From the NCBI RefSeq assembly GCF_053078305.1, contig NZ_CP166879.1: a DNA stretch of 64,000 bases; one strand, written 5' to 3'. Below the pieces are notes generated by a model. It did not search any database. It had not been told where the DNA came from and saw only the letters and a program-made list of their open reading frames with translations. Below are positions 9,437-61,217 of this stretch, one piece after another (the first letter of the stretch is position 1; every line of letters starts with the position of its first letter). The translations under genes were made by a program, and so were the position numbers.

Positions 9437-11461
<2,025 letters not shown>

Positions 11462-39681: not shown

Positions 39682-39699
39682 TTCCTACAACTGTAAGAT
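39682..39699. promoter_or_regulatory. EvgA-box-like 18-bp inverted repeat upstream of yfdX
   Basis: TTCCTACAacTGTAAGAT versus reported EvgA box TTCYTACA-N2-TGTARGAA; about 135 bp upstream of yfdX. Confidence 0.5.
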
Positions 39700-39834
39700 T
39701 AAAATACTTCTTGCGATAATAACTACAAGTGTAAGATAACCCTTTCAAAATGACCGTTGCTCTCTGATTTCTCATTTCATGCTCACCCAATATGATGGCG
39801 GCGTTTTCTAAAACTGTTAAAGAATGAGGTAAGT

Positions 39835-40710: not shown

Positions 40711-40728
40711 TTCTTACAGTTGTAAGAA
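40711..40728. promoter_or_regulatory. EvgA box (perfect 18-bp inverted repeat) upstream of frc
   Basis: TTCTTACAgtTGTAAGAA, perfect palindrome matching EvgA consensus, about 250 bp upstream of frc. Confidence 0.55.
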
Positions 40729-50702: not shown

Positions 50703-50720
50703 ATCCTACAGGCGTAAGAA
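50703..50720. promoter_or_regulatory. EvgA-box-like inverted repeat in evgA-emrK divergent intergenic region
   Basis: ATCCTACAggCGTAAGAA, close match to TTCYTACA-N2-TGTARGAA. Confidence 0.45.
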
Positions 50721-53702: not shown

Positions 53703-55031
53703 TTAACGGCCTTTTGCCAGATATTGCTCCATCTCTTCTTCCGGCACCATTCCACCTCCCGTCGCCCACACCAGATGAGTGGTATTACGCAGTTGTTCTG
53801 CGCTGAAACCGTGCATCTGTTGGTAACTTACTGATGCACACACGCGCTGAGGTCCGGCCATACCCGCCAGTGCCGAAGGTTCAAGACGAATACCTTCTTC
53901 CTGCGCCAGCCAGCCAAGCATGTCATACATGGTTTGATCGCTAAGGGTATAGAAGCCATCCAGCAGACGCTCCATTGCCCGCCCGACAAAGCCTGATGCG
54001 CGACCAACTGCAAGGCCATCCGCTGCGGTAAGGTTGTCGATACCAATATCCTGAACAGAAATCTGATCGTGTAATCCTGTATGGACGCCTAACAACATAC
54101 AAGGGGAGTGCGTTGGTTCGGCAAAAAAGCAGTGAACATGATCGCCAAACGCCAGTTTAAGCCCGAATGCGACGCCACCAGGACCACCGCCAACACCACA
54201 CGGCAGATAGACAAACAGAGGGTTATCAGCATCGACGATACGGCCTTGCTGGGCAAATTGCGCTTTAAGACGCTGGCCAGCGACGGAATACCCAAGGAAC
54301 AACGTGCGGGAATTTTCGTCATCAATAAAGAAACAGTTCGGGTCAGACTGCGCTGCTTTACGTCCTTCCTCGACGGCAACACCATAATCTTGCTCATATT
54401 CCACGACCGTAACGCCATGGCTGCGCAGTTTCGCTTTTTTCCATGCCCGGGCATCAGCAGACATATGCACTGTCACCTTAAAGCCAATGCGGGCGCTCAT
54501 AATGCCGATTGATAACCCCAGATTTCCGGTTGAGCCCACAGCAATGCTGTATTGGCTAAAGAACTGTTTAAACTCCGGAGAAAGCAGTTTGCTGTAGTCA
54601 TCATCAAGCGTCAGCAACCCCGCTTCCAGAGCCAGTTTTTCTGCGTGTGCCAGGACTTCATAAATCCCGCCGCGTGCTTTTATGGAGCCGGAAATGGGCA
54701 AATGGCTATCTTTTTTCAGTAACAGTTGCCCGCTGATCGGTTGTTGATATTCCTTTTCCAGCCGTTTTTGCATAGCCGGAATGGCAACCAGTTCTGATTC
54801 AATAATCCCCCCAGTGGCAGCAGTTTCAGGAAATGCTTTTGCCAGATAGGGTGCAAAACGGGATAAGCGCGCATGGGCGTCCTGAACATCCTGTTCGGTC
54901 AGGCCAACATAAGGTAAACCTTCAGCCAATGAGGTCGTGCCAGGATTAAACCAGGTGGTTTCTTTAAGAGCAACCAGATCCTTTACCAACGGATACTGGG
55001 CGATGAGCGAGTTCATTTTAGCGTTTTCCAT
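53703..55031 (-). CDS. dsdA: D-serine ammonia-lyase (D-serine dehydratase)
   Basis: 442 aa PLP enzyme [31 protein letters not shown]..., PLP lysine in SGSIKARGG. Confidence 0.93.
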
Positions 55032-55048: not shown

Positions 55049-55279
55049 TTAGATGATAAATGACAGCAGGAATGTGCCCGCCAGAGCGACGACTGAAGCG
55101 ATAAATGTCGCTGTCGTATAGTATTTAAATGTTTCATTGAGCGTAGCGCCGCAATATTGCTTCACCAGCCAGAAAAGCGAGTCCGTAACGATCGTGCAGC
55201 CAATCGCGCCTGAACCGATAGCAATCGCAATAATTTCCGGGCTGATGTCGGGATACAGCGGCAGCACAATGATCCATAT
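55049..55279 (-). pseudogene. dsdX: 3'-terminal remnant of D-serine permease gene dsdX (GntP family)
   Basis: Only the last ~72 codons of a GntP-type permease are present immediately upstream of dsdA; reading frame is closed by a stop at 55280-55282. Confidence 0.7.
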
Positions 55280-55373
55280 TTATATTTTCTTCTCCAGGTT
55301 GGCGATGCCAGTTGGCATGTTTTACTTACTTGCCTATATGGTTACTCGTTGGCGAGAACAGAGGCGGAATTGG

Positions 55374-55385
55374 GGACAATTGTCC
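55374..55385. promoter_or_regulatory. perfect 12-bp palindrome upstream of cscR
   Basis: GGACAATTGTCC about 110 bp upstream of cscR start; candidate operator. Confidence 0.25.
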
Positions 55386-55497
55386 GGGAATTATTGTTAT
55401 TTTTTATTGTATTGCCGTGTCAGGTGATAGGGCGTTGGATCTCGCCAGTGACGTCTGTTTCTGCTACAGTGCCCGTTTTACGGCAAACGGCTTGGGT

Positions 55498-56493
55498 ATG
55501 GCTTCATTAAAGGATGTCGCACGCCTGGCGGGAGTGTCGATGATGACAGTCTCCCGGGTGATGCATAATGCAGAATCTGTGCGTCCTGCAACGCGTGACC
55601 GCGTATTGCAGGCAATCCAGACCCTGAATTATGTTCCTGATCTTTCCGCCCGTAAGATGCGCGCTCAAGGACGTAAGCCGTCGACTCTCGCCGTGCTGGC
55701 GCAGGACACTGCTACCACTCCTTTCTCTGTTGATATTCTGCTTGCCATTGAGCAAACCGCCAGCGAGTTCGGCTGGAATAGTTTTTTAATCAATATTTTT
55801 TCTGAAGATGACGCTGCCCGCGCGGCACGTCAGCTGCTTGCCCACCGTCCGGATGGCATTATCTATACTACAATGGGGCTGCGACATATCACGCTACCTG
55901 AGTCTCTGTATGGTGAAAATATTGTATTGGCGAACTGTGTGGCGGATGACCCAGCGTTACCCAGTTATATCCCTGATGATTACACTGCACAATATGAATC
56001 AACACAGCATTTGCTCGCGGCGGGCTATCGTCAACCGTTATGCTTCTGGCTACCGGAAAGTGCGTTGGCAACAGGGTATCGTCGGCAGGGATTTGAGCAG
56101 GCCTGGCGTGATGCTGGACGAGATCTGGCTGAGGTGAAACAATTTCACATGGCAACAGGTGATGATCACTACACCGATCTCGCAAGTTTACTCAATGACC
56201 ACTTCAAATCGGGCAAACCAGATTTTGATGTTCTGATATGTGGTAACGATCGCGCAGCCTTTGTGGCTTATCAGGTTCTCCTGGCTAAGGGGGTACGTAT
56301 CCCGCAGGATGTCGCCGTAATGGGCTTTGATAATCTGGTTGGCGTCGGGCATCTGTTTTTACCGCCGCTGACCACAATTCAGCTTCCACATGACATTATC
56401 GGGCGGGAAGCTGCATTGCATATTATTGAAGGTCGTGAAGGGGGAAGTGTGACGCGGATCCCTTGCCCGCTGTTGATCCGTTGTTCCACCTGA
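55498..56493 (+). CDS. cscR: LacI-family sucrose operon repressor
   Basis: 331 aa from MASLKDVARLAGVSMMTVSRVMHN (LacI HTH); the track ORF from 55312 is an upstream extension. Confidence 0.85.
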   Translation: MASLKDVARLAGVSMMTVSRVMHNAESVRPATRDRVLQAIQTLNYVPDLSARKMRAQGRKPSTLAVLAQDTATTPFSVDILLAIEQTASEFGWNSFLINIFSEDDAARAARQLLAHRPDGIIYTTMGLRHITLPESLYGENIVLANCVADDPALPSYIPDDYTAQYESTQHLLAAGYRQPLCFWLPESALATGYRRQGFEQAWRDAGRDLAEVKQFHMATGDDHYTDLASLLNDHFKSGKPDFDVLICGNDRAAFVAYQVLLAKGVRIPQDVAVMGFDNLVGVGHLFLPPLTTIQLPHDIIGREAALHIIEGREGGSVTRIPCPLLIRCST

Positions 56494-56500
56494 TATTATG

Positions 56501-57934
56501 TTAACCCAGTTGCCAGAGTGCTCCATGTTGCACCACAGCCACTCCGTGGGAGGCATAAAGCGACAGTTCCCGTTCTTCTGGCTGCGGATAGATTCGACTA
56601 CTCATCACCGCTTCCCCGTCGTTAATAAATACTTCCACGGATGATGTATCGATAAATATCCTTAGGGCGAGCGTGTCACGCTGCGGGAGGGGAATACTAC
56701 GGTAGCCGTCTAAATTCTCGTGTGGGTAATACCGCCACAAAACAAGTCGCTCAGATTGGTTATCAATATACAGCCGCATTCCAATGCCGAGCTGTAATCC
56801 GTAATGTTCGGCATCACTGTTCTTCAGCGCCCACTGCAACTGAATCTCAACTGCTTGCGCGTTTTCCTGCAAAACATATTTATTGCTGATTGTGCGGGGA
56901 GAGATAGATTGATGCTGCTGGCGTAACGACTCAGCTTCGTGTACCGGGCGTTGTAGGAGTTTGCCATTGCTCTCTGATAGCTCGCGCGCCAGCGTCATGC
57001 AGCCTGCCCAGCCTTCACGTTTTGAGGGCATTGGCGATTCCCACATATCCATCCAGCCGATAACAATACGCCGACCATCCTTCGCTACAAAGCTTTGTGG
57101 TGCATAAAAGTCATGCCCGTTATCAAGTTCAGTAAAATGCCCGGATTGTGCAAAAAGTCGTCCTGGCGACCACATTCCGGGTATTACGCCACTTTGAAAG
57201 CGATTTCGGTAACTGTATCCCTCGGCATTCATTCCCTGCGGGGAAAACATCAGATAATGCTGATCGCCAAGGCTGAAAAAGTCCGGACATTCCCACATAT
57301 AGCTTTCACCCGCATCAGCGTGGGCCAGTACGCGATCGAAAGTCCATTCACGTAATGAACTGCCGCGATAAAGCAGGATCTGCCCCGTGTTGCCTGGGTC
57401 TTTCGCCCCGACTACCATCCACCATGTGTCGGCTTCACGCCACACTTTAGGATCGCGGAAGTGCATGATTCCTTCTGGTGGAGTGAGGATCACACCCTGT
57501 TTCTCGAAATGAATACCATCCCGACTGGTAGCCAGACATTGTACTTCGCGAATTGCATCGTCATTACCTGCACCATCGAGCCAGACGTGTCCGGTGTAGA
57601 TAAGTGAGAGGACACCATTGTCATCGACAGCACTACCTGAAAAACACCCGTCTTTGTCATTATCGTCTCCTGGCGCTAGCGCAATAGGCTCATGCTGCCA
57701 GTGGATCATATCGTCGCTGGTGGCATGTCCCCAGTGCATTGGCCCCCAGTGTTCGCTCATTGGGTGATGTTGATAAAACGCGTGATAACGATCGTTAAAC
57801 CAGATCAGGCCGTTTGGATCGTTCATCCACCCGGCAGGAGGCGCGAGGTGAAAATGGGGATAGAAAGTGTTACCCCGGTGCTCATGAAGTTTTGCTAGTG
57901 CGTTTTGCGCCGCATGCAATCGAGATTGCGTCAT
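56501..57934 (-). CDS. cscA: sucrose-6-phosphate hydrolase / invertase (GH32)
   Basis: 477 aa from MTQSRLH...; GH32 motifs WMNDPNG, FRDPKV, WECPD. Confidence 0.88.
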   Translation of the reverse strand: MTQSRLHAAQNALAKLHEHRGNTFYPHFHLAPPAGWMNDPNGLIWFNDRYHAFYQHHPMSEHWGPMHWGHATSDDMIHWQHEPIALAPGDDNDKDGCFSGSAVDDNGVLSLIYTGHVWLDGAGNDDAIREVQCLATSRDGIHFEKQGVILTPPEGIMHFRDPKVWREADTWWMVVGAKDPGNTGQILLYRGSSLREWTFDRVLAHADAGESYMWECPDFFSLGDQHYLMFSPQGMNAEGYSYRNRFQSGVIPGMWSPGRLFAQSGHFTELDNGHDFYAPQSFVAKDGRRIVIGWMDMWESPMPSKREGWAGCMTLARELSESNGKLLQRPVHEAESLRQQHQSISPRTISNKYVLQENAQAVEIQLQWALKNSDAEHYGLQLGIGMRLYIDNQSERLVLWRYYPHENLDGYRSIPLPQRDTLALRIFIDTSSVEVFINDGEAVMSSRIYPQPEERELSLYASHGVAVVQHGALWQLG

Positions 57935-57966
57935 TTTAATCATCCTGGTTAAGCAAATTTGGTGAA

Positions 57967-58044
57967 TTGTTAACGTTAACTTTTATAAAAATAAAGTCCC
58001 TTACTTTCATAAATGCGATGAATATCACAAATGTTAACGTTAAC
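57967..58044. promoter_or_regulatory. cscA / cscKB divergent control region with two copies of a LacI-type operator palindrome
   Basis: TGTTAACGTTAAC occurs at 57967-57980 and 58032-58044 (core GTTAACGTTAAC is palindromic). Confidence 0.55.
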
Positions 58045-58149
58045 TATGACATTTTGTGATCGAATATGCATGTTTTAGTAAATCCATGACGATTTTGCGA
58101 AAAAGAGGTTTATCACTATGCGTAAGTCAGATGAATTTAAGGGAAAAAA

Positions 58150-59064
58150 ATGTCAGCCAAAGTATGGGTTTTAGGGGATGCGGTAGTAGATCTCTTGCCA
58201 GAATCAGACGGGCGCCTACTGCCTTGTCCTGGCGGCGCGCCAGCTAACGTTGCGGTGGGAATCGCCAGATTAGGCGGAATAAGTGGGTTTATAGGTCGGG
58301 TCGGTGATGATCCTTTTGGTGCGTTAATGCAAAGAACGCTGCTAACTGAGGGAGTCGATATCACGTATCTGAAGCAAGATGAATGGCACCGGACATCCAC
58401 GGTGCTTGTCGATCTGAACGATCAAGGGGAACGTTCATTTACGTTTATGGTCCGCCCCAGTGCCGATCTTTTTTTAGAGACGACAGACTTGCCCTGCTGG
58501 CGACATGGCGAATGGTTACATCTCTGTTCAATTGCGTTGTCTGCCGAGCCTTCGCGTACCAGCGCATTTACTGCGATGACTGCGATCCGGCATGCCGGAG
58601 GTTTTGTCAGCTTCGATCCCAATATTCGTGAAGATCTATGGCAAGACGAGCATTTGCTCCGCTTGTGTTTGCGGCAGGCGCTACAACTGGCGGATGTCGT
58701 CAAGCTCTCGGAAGAAGAATGGCGACTTATCAGTGGAAAAACACAGAACGATCGGAATATATGCGCCCTGGCAAAAGAGTATGAGATCGCCATGCTGTTG
58801 GTGACTAAAGGTGCAGAAGGGGTGGTGGTCTGTTATCGAGGACAAGTTCACCATTTTGCTGGAATGTCTGTGAATTGTGTCGATAGCACGGGGGCGGGAG
58901 ATGCGTTCGTTGCCGGGTTACTCACAGGTCTGTCCTCTACGGGATTATCTACAGATGAGAGAGGAATGCGACGAATTATCGATCTCGCTCAACGTTGCGG
59001 AGCGCTTGCAGTAACGGCGAAAGGGGCAATGACAGCGCTGCCATGTCGACAAGAACTGGAATAG
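58150..59064 (+). CDS. cscK: fructokinase (ribokinase/pfkB family)
   Basis: 304 aa; pfkB motifs (VVDLLPE..., DSTGAGDAFVAGLL). Confidence 0.88.
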   Translation: MSAKVWVLGDAVVDLLPESDGRLLPCPGGAPANVAVGIARLGGISGFIGRVGDDPFGALMQRTLLTEGVDITYLKQDEWHRTSTVLVDLNDQGERSFTFMVRPSADLFLETTDLPCWRHGEWLHLCSIALSAEPSRTSAFTAMTAIRHAGGFVSFDPNIREDLWQDEHLLRLCLRQALQLADVVKLSEEEWRLISGKTQNDRNICALAKEYEIAMLLVTKGAEGVVVCYRGQVHHFAGMSVNCVDSTGAGDAFVAGLLTGLSSTGLSTDERGMRRIIDLAQRCGALAVTAKGAMTALPCRQELE

Positions 59065-59135: not shown

Positions 59136-60383
59136 ATGGCACTGAATATCCCATTCAGAAATGCGTACTATCGTTTTGCATCCAGTTACTCATTTCTCTT
59201 TTTTATTTCCTGGTCGCTGTGGTGGTCGTTATACGCTATTTGGCTGAAAGGACATCTAGGGTTGACAGGGACGGAATTAGGTACACTTTATTCGGTCAAC
59301 CAGTTTACCAGCATTCTATTTATGATGTTCTACGGCATCGTTCAGGATAAACTCGGTCTGAAGAAACCGCTCATCTGGTGTATGAGTTTTATCCTGATCT
59401 TGACCGGACCGTTTATGATTTACGTTTATGAACCGTTACTGCAAAGCAATTTTTCTGTAGGTTTAATTCTGGGGGCGCTCTTTTTTGGCCTGGGGTATCT
59501 GGCGGGATGCGGTTTGCTTGACAGCTTCACCGAAAAAATGGCGCGAAATTTTCATTTCGAATATGGAACAGCGCGCGCCTGGGGATCTTTTGGCTATGCT
59601 ATTGGCGCGTTCTTTGCCGGCATATTTTTTAGTATCAGTCCCCATATTAACTTCTGGTTGGTCTCGCTATTTGGCGCTGTATTTATGATGATCAACATGT
59701 GTTTTAAAGATAAGGATCACCAGTGCGTAGCGGCGGATGCGGGAGGGGTAAAAAAAGAGGATTTTATCGCAGTTTTCAAGGATCGAAACTTCTGGGTTTT
59801 CGTCATATTTATTGTTGGGACGTGGTCTTTCTATAACATTTTTGATCAACAACTTTTTCCTGTCTTTTATGCAGGTTTATTCGAATCACACGATGTAGGA
59901 ACGCGCCTGTATGGTTATCTCAACTCATTCCAGGTGGTACTCGAAGCGCTGTGCATGGCGATTATTCCGTTCTTTGTGAATCGGGTAGGGCCAAAAAATG
60001 CATTACTTATCGGTGTTGTGATTATGGCGTTGCGTATCCTTTCCTGCGCGCTGTTCGTTAACCCCTGGATTATTTCATTAGTGAAGCTGTTACATGCCAT
60101 TGAGGTTCCACTTTATGTCATATCCGTCTTCAAATACAGCGTGGCAAACTTTGATAAGCGCCTGTCGTCGACGATCTTTCTGATTGGTTTTCAAATTGCC
60201 AGTTCGCTTGGGATTGTGCTGCTTTCAACGCCGACTGGGATACTCTTTGACCACGCAGGCTACCAGACAGTTTTCTTCGCAATTTCGGGTATTGTCTGCC
60301 TGATGTTGCTATTTGGCATTTTCTTCCTGAGTAAAAAACGCGAGCAAATAGTTATGGAAACGCCTGTACCTTCAGCAATATAG
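59136..60383 (+). CDS. cscB: sucrose:H+ symporter (oligosaccharide:H+ symporter family, LacY-like)
   Basis: 415 aa 12-TM MFS ORF. Confidence 0.88.
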   Translation: MALNIPFRNAYYRFASSYSFLFFISWSLWWSLYAIWLKGHLGLTGTELGTLYSVNQFTSILFMMFYGIVQDKLGLKKPLIWCMSFILILTGPFMIYVYEPLLQSNFSVGLILGALFFGLGYLAGCGLLDSFTEKMARNFHFEYGTARAWGSFGYAIGAFFAGIFFSISPHINFWLVSLFGAVFMMINMCFKDKDHQCVAADAGGVKKEDFIAVFKDRNFWVFVIFIVGTWSFYNIFDQQLFPVFYAGLFESHDVGTRLYGYLNSFQVVLEALCMAIIPFFVNRVGPKNALLIGVVIMALRILSCALFVNPWIISLVKLLHAIEVPLYVISVFKYSVANFDKRLSSTIFLIGFQIASSLGIVLLSTPTGILFDHAGYQTVFFAISGIVCLMLLFGIFFLSKKREQIVMETPVPSAI

Positions 60384-60824
60384 ACGTAAACTTTTTCCGG
60401 TTGTTGTCGATATCTCCATATCCTTCAACCGGAAAATAATAATACTAAAATGCTTAGCCCTGCTAATAATCGCCTAATCCAAACACCTCATTCATGTTCT
60501 GGTACAGTCGCTCAAATGTACTCCGGATACACGGTTCGCTGATTTCCAGGACATTGTCGTCATTCAGCGACCTGTCGCGTGTATCACGGGCCTGCGAATT
60601 CATCAAGGAATGCATTGCGGAGTGAAGTATCGAGTCACGCCATATTTCGCTATCAGGATTCTGTGTGATGGTTACATCGCCCGGCCCAAGGCTGTTTAGT
60701 CATCAGCGCTTTCTGACAGTGCTGAGATTTCAACCTGTTGCAGTAAAAATGAGTAGATATAGGGCAAGTGTGCTGCCAAACCCATCGTTTACGGGATGAA
60801 GGTAGATTTGGTTTGAAGGGTATC

Positions 60825-60839
60825 TGGTGTCCCCTGCAG
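60825..60839 (-). other. prophage att core: copy of the 3' end of tRNA-Arg (argW-type)
   Basis: TGGTGTCCCCTGCAG is the reverse complement of ...CTGCAGGGGACACCA (3' acceptor end of tRNA-Arg-CCU as recalled); similarity stops after 15 nt, so this is a partial copy and not a tRNA gene. Confidence 0.5.
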
Positions 60840-60912
60840 ACATCTACTTGAAGCGGCAGGGGATTGATTGGAATGGTGTTTTTTAGATGTGAAAAATATT
60901 TTACCCGCTATT

Positions 60913-61113
60913 TTACCCATTGGCGCGGCTTAAGAGCTTATTTTTGAATTCACAATGGTCACGATATAACCATCTTGCTCGCCCGTGGATAACTTTGGCT
61001 TTAGGTAGGTCTCCGGACTTAATCCGGTCATAGATGAAGGTCTTACCGAAGCCAGTATCAGCCATGATGAATTTCAAATCAACCAGTGAATCAGGTTGTA
61101 GTTCGTGTTGCAT
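60913..61113 (-). CDS. torI: AlpA/TorI-type excisionase (recombination directionality factor)
   Basis: 66 aa MQHELQPDSLVDLKFIMADTGFGKTFIYDRIKSGDLPKAKVIHGRARW...; winged-helix Xis family; matches my recollection of TorI of the argW prophage. Confidence 0.6.
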   Translation of the reverse strand: MQHELQPDSLVDLKFIMADTGFGKTFIYDRIKSGDLPKAKVIHGRARWLYRDHCEFKNKLLSRANG

Positions 61114-61217
61114 GAGTGCTATCTCCGAATAGGGAATCGAACCTGCAAATCAGGCAATAAAAAAACCGCATTGATGCGGCGATGGTAGGTCTGGATATCT
61201 TGATAAATGAAAATGCC

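Follow-up and report, generated by a model that had tools for sequence, protein, structure and literature searches.

A perfect 12-bp palindrome upstream of the sucrose repressor gene cscR: very probably a chance symmetry in the remnant of a yjfF-like gene

The palindrome and its place in the csc island

The region upstream of the sucrose repressor gene cscR in the 64,000-nt stretch of DNA analyzed here (hereafter the window) carries a perfect 12-bp palindrome, GGACAATTGTCC, and this raises the question of whether the palindrome is a regulatory site, the trace of a recombination event, or neither. The initial annotation had offered it as a possible operator or recombination scar at the island junction. 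Its coordinates, 55374–55385, were given correctly, and it is present as a single copy in the window; the symmetry stops at 12 bp, with G/G mismatches on both flanks. Our overall conclusion is that the observation is real but ordinary, that the operator reading is rejected and that "scar" is loosely right. Very probably the palindrome is an accident of sequence, without function, within neutrally evolving debris of a yjfF-like gene that was brought in with the csc island.

Palindromes of this kind are no more frequent here than chance would have them: 21 perfect 12-bp ones occur in the window, where Markov-1 simulations give 19.2 ± 4.6, and 4.2% of simulated 231-bp regions of the same composition contain at least one. 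No other copies of GGACAATTGTCC within two mismatches were found in the 64-kb window beyond the chance expectation. A search of Rfam gave no match in the palindrome region (the sole sub-threshold hit, a chance match to a snoRNA, sits inside the dsdX fragment described below), and a full-text literature search for the 12-mer returned unrelated eukaryotic primer sequences only, with nothing in a bacterial context.

The locus is a familiar one, the csc sucrose island found at the hotspot argW-dsdCXA (PMC11251922, PMC7486766), which is carried by 2691 of 5426 complete E. coli genomes, or about half. Gene names come from PGAP, as given for a genome that matches the window exactly over the 231 bp before cscR, and from the open reading frames of the window itself; the order is evgS, evgA, emrK, emrY, dsdA, dsdX', cscR, cscA, cscK, cscB, a DUF4942 fragment, the tRNA-Arg gene argW, and yfdC. 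On the minus strand, dsdA (53703–55031) is followed by dsdX' (55049–55266/55267), which retains only ~72 codons from the C-terminal end of the D-serine transporter gene as judged from alignment with K-12 and from PGAP. The LacI-family repressor gene cscR (plus strand, 55498–56493) begins with the ATG at 55498, and cscA (minus, 56501–57943), cscK (plus, 58150–59064) and cscB (plus, 59136–60383) are placed by annotation. At the right end of the island, between cscB and argW, there is a short open reading frame fragment with a DUF4942 domain at ~60463–60615 (11196–11348 of locus L001). In the csc-positive strain 2015C-4498 dsdA is annotated as frameshifted (1437–2764 of locus L002), as would fit a D-serine deaminase gene that, once orphaned, is decaying in some lineages.

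In alignments the K-12 dsdX homology stops at 55266/55267, and so the left junction lies 13 nt to the left of 55280, the position from which the initial annotation had counted the cscR promoter region, and 108 bp to the left of the palindrome. The palindrome is thus well inside the island and not at its junction, as had been supposed, and the statement that the cscR promoter region begins at the dsdX truncation is imprecise both because its start coordinate is 13 nt off and because the predicted core promoter is ~175 bp from the junction. We also note a 27-nt inverted similarity, called I1, between 55223–55249 in the dsdX fragment and 55375–55401 in the palindrome and its right flank, the two being 74% complementary. 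The inverted duplication of dsdX that I1 suggested was rejected by shuffled local alignment: the region scores 20–23 against both strands of K-12 dsdC-dsdX, and the shuffle mean is 22.8, so that the similarity is attributed to chance.

The yjfF-like remnant upstream of cscR

Comparison with more distant csc loci is informative in understanding the DNA between dsdX' and cscR. In Citrobacter amalonaticus (loci L009 and L010) and in a Pluralibacter MAG (L011) the gene immediately preceding cscR, and on its strand, is an intact yjfF, which ends 70–80 nt before it in all three; CscR identity is 92, 90 and 75%, respectively. The upstream gene is identified as yjfF by the NCBIfam equivalog NF008630, with scores of 564 bits in L009 and 547 bits in L011 (cut-off 363), and the gene order in L009 is ytfT-yjfF-cscR-cscA-cscK. 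By alignment, the E. coli cscR upstream region from 55267 to 55469 is a frameshifted and internally deleted remnant of such a yjfF-like galactofuranose ABC permease gene.

This homology was seen in several ways. An nhmmer profile made from ten Escherichia alleles of 55267–55440 and searched against 536 kb of other loci matched yjfF over profile positions 1–122, in L009 (2546–2672, E = 5.5e-8), L010 (E = 1.4e-5) and L011 (E = 3.1e-4), with second, collinear matches over profile positions 119–181 (E = 0.012 and 0.042), and it matched K-12 yjfF with E = 5.8e-7. A tblastn search with the Citrobacter YjfF protein against the less decayed copy in the outgroup lineage L007 aligned amino acids 297–334 with E = 1.6e-5 (WTKIAIGVLLFIFIALQRGLTVLWENRQSSPVTRISAT vs WRRLFRGLLLF-FIVLQCRLTGRWEYRRVSPVTSVSAT), and it found further collinear pieces, amino acids 212–233 (64% identity) and 240–258, in two further reading frames. 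The reading frame of the remnant is thus broken into three collinear pieces in three frames, with ~46 codons missing. With the window sequence alone the top four matches all fall in the same yjfF segment, the best with E = 0.01, and so the strong statistics rest on the allele profile and on the less decayed L007 copy. A stringent (+2/−3) DNA local alignment of the window region with the Citrobacter upstream gene was not significant (z = 1.3–1.7), and the conceptual remnant peptides alone, which are too decayed, had no match in Pfam; the homology shows with softer scoring, with the L007 copy, with tblastn and with the profile. The tail of the remnant, SPVTSVSAT, resembles the Citrobacter-type SPVTRISAT and not the K-12 SPVTRVNIA, so that the remnant is no copy of the resident yjfF. 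On plasmids, the only homologues of 55267–55405 were mislabelled E. coli chromosomes. In the literature searched we found no paper that names yjfF together with cscR, nor the yjfF identity of the 230 bp upstream of cscR.

The remnant comprises two plus-strand segments. The first, at 55267–55385, corresponds to decayed and frameshifted codons ~213–255 (nhmmer and tblastn), and the second, at ~55386–55469, to decayed codons ~302–334 (tblastn and the second nhmmer matches); ~140 nt are missing between them, with the joint at about 55383–55389. The palindrome occupies profile positions 108–119, which align to L009 ~2657–2670, GAC GCT ATT GCT TCA (D-A-I-A-S), and profile positions 117–122, equivalent to 55383–55388 of the window, mark the change from the first homology block to the second. 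By these alignments the palindrome is decayed yjfF coding sequence that ends at the first (internal) deletion joint. Both nhmmer and MAFFT place it on the codons LDAIAS, and tblastn places it also on WTKIAIG, beyond the deletion, an alternative that makes the internal joint impossible to fix to the nucleotide; under either placement the palindrome is within the pseudogene fragment.

The proximity of this joint raises the possibility that the palindrome is a scar in the literal sense, created by the ~140-nt internal deletion, with its left half from L-D-A (GGAC GCT A) and its right half from an ATTGC/CATTGG crossover. The first nhmmer match ends at profile positions 117–122 and the second starts at 119–120, at 55383–55388 and so at the right edge of the palindrome, and in intact yjfF both ends of the missing stretch carry short direct repeats (ATTGC, ATTGGCG). 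Against this, the alignments put the whole 12-mer on the contiguous GAC GCT ATT GCT TCA to the left of the joint, the joint is not placeable to the nucleotide, and it takes later point differences, at 55375 and 55382, to make the symmetry perfect, both of these positions being variable among alleles. We therefore regard creation by the deletion as possible but rather unlikely. It implies no function, and it is compatible, as a sub-hypothesis, with the chance symmetry in yjfF debris that we favor.

At its right end, the second segment closes with TGCTACAG (55462–55469), which occurs once in E. coli, and Citrobacter L009 has TGCTACAG twice, in the yjfF tail (codons S-A-T-E) and again in the cscR −10 region. 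The single E. coli copy is flanked by yjfF-derived sequence on its left and promoter-derived sequence on its right, from which we infer a deletion between the repeats.

At the left end, antisense dsdX and yjfF share the hexamer GCAGCA at 55261–55266, within or just after which the crossover lies. Its contexts are GGCAGCA/TGGG in K-12 antisense dsdX, CGCAGCACC in Pluralibacter yjfF and GTAGCACAA in Citrobacter yjfF, and this common microhomology indicates that the left junction arose by illegitimate recombination. An alternative view of the junction, in which csc was inserted at an att-like or dif-like site with the palindrome as its core, would fit the location of the csc locus at the argW recombination hotspot (PMC11251922), but we give it almost no likelihood, since the palindrome is inside the island, has no second copy within two mismatches beyond chance, and shares no k-mer of ≥11 nt with the cscB-argW end (60384–61200), since no integrase is annotated between dsdA and yfdC, and since the GCAGCA microhomology accounts for the junction. 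The recombination scar of the initial annotation is thus right in part: the region is acquisition debris, a yjfF fragment with two deletion joints, but the palindrome has neither a position at the junction nor a partner copy.

Some relatives have further rearrangements here. In Escherichia sp. MOD1-EC7003, a member of a cryptic clade, cscR adjoins lpxP (1101–1560 of locus L008). Comparison with locus L092 (34750–35101) indicates a ~16.5-kb deletion from the yfdY-lpxP intergenic region to ~55399 at the microhomology ATTT(A)TTTAT; it spans yfdY, evgAS, emrKY, dsdA, dsdX' and most of the yjfF remnant and leaves ~99 bp before cscR. We considered this locus as a left csc module boundary at ~55400 and rejected it as a secondary deletion. 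Strain 12690 has phage genes in place of the csc genes and, in the T-rich stretch to the right of the palindrome (L005 3131–3140, equivalent to window ~55398), an IS3-family element (TGAACCGCCCCGGG...) that we take to be IS629-like.

The cscR promoter and regulatory readings of the palindrome

The most likely promoter of cscR is a weak one at 55442–55470 (plus strand), with a putative −35 element TCGCCA at 55442–55447, a 17-nt spacer and an extended −10 element TGcTACAGT at 55462–55470, and with a transcription start predicted near 55477. This placement derives from conservation, the −10 being kept in five genera and TGCTAcAGTGCC varying hardly at all among Escherichia, Citrobacter, Pluralibacter and Tatumella; the site falls under the threshold of a consensus scan. 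The E. coli promoter looks like a hybrid, the −10 being common to Citrobacter and the others and the −35 and spacer being former yjfF codons (SPVTSVSAT), joined through the TGCTACAG-repeat deletion, and both repeats are still present in Citrobacter (L009 2899–2980). We dropped an earlier candidate, a −35 region homologous across genera, since in Escherichia the −35 derives from yjfF codons.

The known CscR sites are elsewhere. Two identical operators, TGTTAACGTTAACT, lie at 57968–57981 and 58032–58045 in the cscA-cscK intergenic region, and a search for the CscR operator with ≤3 mismatches finds only these two sites in the locus. They are the 12-bp inverted repeats proposed as CscR operators by Jahreis et al. 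(2002), as cited in PMC11251922 and PMC3938415, and according to the same two papers a derepressing mutation maps to one of them. The initial annotation's suggestion that the palindrome is itself an operator, which might serve as an auxiliary CscR site for autoregulation or for looping to the cscA/cscK operators, does have in its favor that a 12-bp dyad, of the same length as the known operators, lies upstream of the repressor's own gene. Nevertheless, the palindrome-centred 14-mer has 10/14 mismatches with the CscR operator TGTTAACGTTAACA, the palindrome centre is AATT and that of the operator CG, and the best CscR operator-like site anywhere in 55267–55497 has 5 mismatches. The palindrome centre (55379/80) is at about −97 from the predicted cscR start (about −109 in alleles with 12 extra bp), where it neither overlaps nor flanks the predicted core promoter, and it is 2.6 kb from the real operators. 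The literature puts CscR operators only in the cscA-cscK region (PMC3938415, PMC11251922), and, as described next, the site varies among functional loci and among genomes that share identical CscR proteins. An auxiliary CscR operator here is therefore very improbable, and presumably the palindrome is not bound by protein.

The comparison with other csc islands was made by counting exact 36-mers centred on the palindrome in 2689 csc-positive complete E. coli genomes. The perfect GGACAATTGTCC of the window, with 6/6 pairs, is present in 698 (26%), among them E. coli W. Three other major alleles have imperfect palindromes: GTACAATTGTCC with 5/6 pairs (563 genomes), GTACAATTATCC preceded by GA with 4/6 pairs (879 genomes, AMA1167 type), and GTACAATTATCC preceded by GG, also with 4/6 pairs (310 genomes, O157:H7 type), so that at least 1752 of the 2689 genomes have a 5/6 or 4/6 form. 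Rarer alleles have 3/6 or 4/6 pairs, a divergent Escherichia lineage has an indel at the palindrome site, and the site is absent from Escherichia sp. MOD1-EC7003, Citrobacter and Pluralibacter. The cscR and other csc genes of O157:H7 are experimentally functional (PMC7486766), and yet this locus has only the imperfect GTACAATTATCC, an outcome of the kind that the initial annotation had itself named as refuting its reading. The state of the palindrome does not co-vary with CscR. One and the same protein, WP_001301925.1, accompanies the perfect version in some genomes and the O157 version in others, and WP_001342524.1 is encoded both by strain W (6/6 pairs) and by strain Eco_23-2667 (3/6).

In a set of nine E. 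coli alleles, 4/12 palindrome positions are variable, compared to 23/219 intergenic positions outside it (one-sided Fisher p = 0.038), and there are no variable sites (0/61) in the 61 bp before the cscR ATG (55437–55497). In the yjfF remnant 21/134 sites vary, and in the promoter and 5' UTR 0/61. This pattern shows selection to act on the promoter-proximal part and not on the palindrome. The outgroup lineage L007 has G at 55375 and 55382, as does the window, and so E. coli may have had the perfect form, or nearly so, from an ancestor, without its having newly arisen. Among alleles of the cscR upstream region, indels of 12, 13 and 1 nt also segregate. Alleles FAH and Z1323HEC are without the 13 bp GTTGGCGATGCCA (55298–55310, between GTTGGC repeats), a loss that removes one arm of a terminator-like hairpin (55297–55318) in the yjfF remnant and is another sign of relaxed constraint.

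The 12-bp indel is a deletion of CGTTGAGAATAT between CGTTG direct repeats at 55432/55433, directly upstream of the predicted cscR −35. Allele comparison shows it to be specific to the window/E. coli W allele class, all the other sampled Escherichia alleles having the 12 bp, and it travels with the perfect palindrome (identity to the window over 231 bp is ≥99% in 705 genomes, and 698 have the exact 36-mer). Since the two changes occupy one haplotype, and since this includes E. coli W, an efficient sucrose user (PMC3938415), one might imagine that the W/B1-type perfect palindrome binds a dimeric regulator other than CscR and, with the 12-bp deletion, tunes cscR. However, shared descent would by itself put the two on one haplotype, the palindrome fits no known motif, its centre lies near −97 from the predicted start, and the literature searched has no report of the sequence in a bacterial context; we consider such a lineage-specific site improbable. 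That the perfect form, as a putative dimeric-regulator site or through a change in DNA geometry, alters cscR expression together with the deletion likewise seems improbable to us; if it did so, the W/B1-type site would help to explain why strains differ in the threshold for induction by sucrose, or in how far transcription reads through into dsdA, which is silent.

The evgA gene is 5 kb away, and for its box we used the consensus TTCYTACA-NN-TGTARGAA (TTCYTACANNTGTARGAA, an 18-bp inverted repeat). This consensus has matches with 0–3 mismatches at 39682–39699, 39720–39737, 40711–40728 and 50703–50720, where 0.58 are expected by chance; these positions are upstream of yfdX, in the yfdX-frc interval and in the evgA-emrK intergenic region, and boxes at the yfdX, frc and emrK promoters fit the published EvgA regulon. 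An EvgA box at the palindrome was tried and rejected, there being 6–8/16 mismatches in every allele, against 0–3 in the genuine boxes; what the two have in common is an ACA-NN-TGT core.

A structural role was weighed as well, in which the palindrome and the T-rich run TTATTGTTATTTTTTATTG that follows it on the plus strand would form a hairpin or terminator that stops upstream transcription or insulates dsdA from the csc genes. The stem would have only 4 bp (−4.9 kcal/mol on the minus strand; −2.2 kcal/mol as DNA), the plus strand prefers another fold (z = −0.28), and a terminator scan does not list the palindrome. In addition, transcription from the cscA promoter of O157:H7 reads through the region into dsdA (PMC7486766), and we regard a terminator here as extremely improbable.

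Proposed history and comparison with known systems

The reading that we prefer, a non-functional chance symmetry in yjfF debris, can be set out as a series of events whose order is our proposal. The donor genome would have had a yjfF-like permease gene directly upstream of cscR, as Citrobacter amalonaticus and Pluralibacter have today, and the decayed 3' part of that gene would have come into E. coli along with cscRAKB when yjfF and antisense dsdX recombined illegitimately at the 4–6-nt microhomology GCAGCA. Later, the yjfF fragment would have lost ~140 nt internally and a further ~67 nt between the two copies of TGCTACAG, the latter loss joining the yjfF tail to the cscR −10 element. The palindrome would then be the former yjfF codons D-A-I-A-S at the first deletion joint, perfect in one allele class only, and CscR would act at the two GTTAACGTTAAC operators between cscA and cscK and not at the palindrome.

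The palindrome can thus leave any list of candidate operators, and the yjfF remnant is a modestly useful by-product that indicates a csc source context like that of Citrobacter or Pluralibacter. A yjfF fossil with a Citrobacter-type tail implies that the E. coli csc cluster once adjoined yjfF, and this argues for the yjfF-adjacent arrangement as the ancestral one and for E. coli as the recipient. The opposite direction, in which Citrobacter received its csc copies from E. coli, has been suggested (PMC11251922). The E. coli cscR −35 and spacer would have been built from formerly coding sequence by a short-repeat deletion, and this origin is relevant to engineering cscR expression and to comparing it in W, EC3132 and O157:H7.

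With respect to known systems, the gene order here is identical to that of the E. coli csc islands in which cscRAKB replaces dsdC and most of dsdX (EC3132, W, O157:H7). The cscR upstream region of the window is identical to that of many sequenced E. coli and near-identical to that of W, the two 12-bp CscR operators are between cscA and cscK as published (PMC11251922), and the window's locus itself shows no difference from these islands. LacI/GalR-family operators, such as the CscR operator GTTAACGTTAAC, are likewise 12-bp perfect dyads near a LacI-family repressor gene, but the palindrome differs from it in being AATT-centred with 10/14 mismatches, far upstream of the promoter and not conserved. 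There is a likeness, too, to gene remnants at the borders of horizontally acquired islands, where fragments of flanking genes are joined by microhomology-mediated illegitimate recombination: here what is left of the recipient's dsdX meets what is left of the donor's yjfF at a 4–6-nt microhomology, and the donor fragment is likewise frameshifted, deleted between short direct repeats and polymorphic. The present case differs from those in that the tail of the remnant was apparently co-opted as the −35 element and spacer of the cscR promoter.
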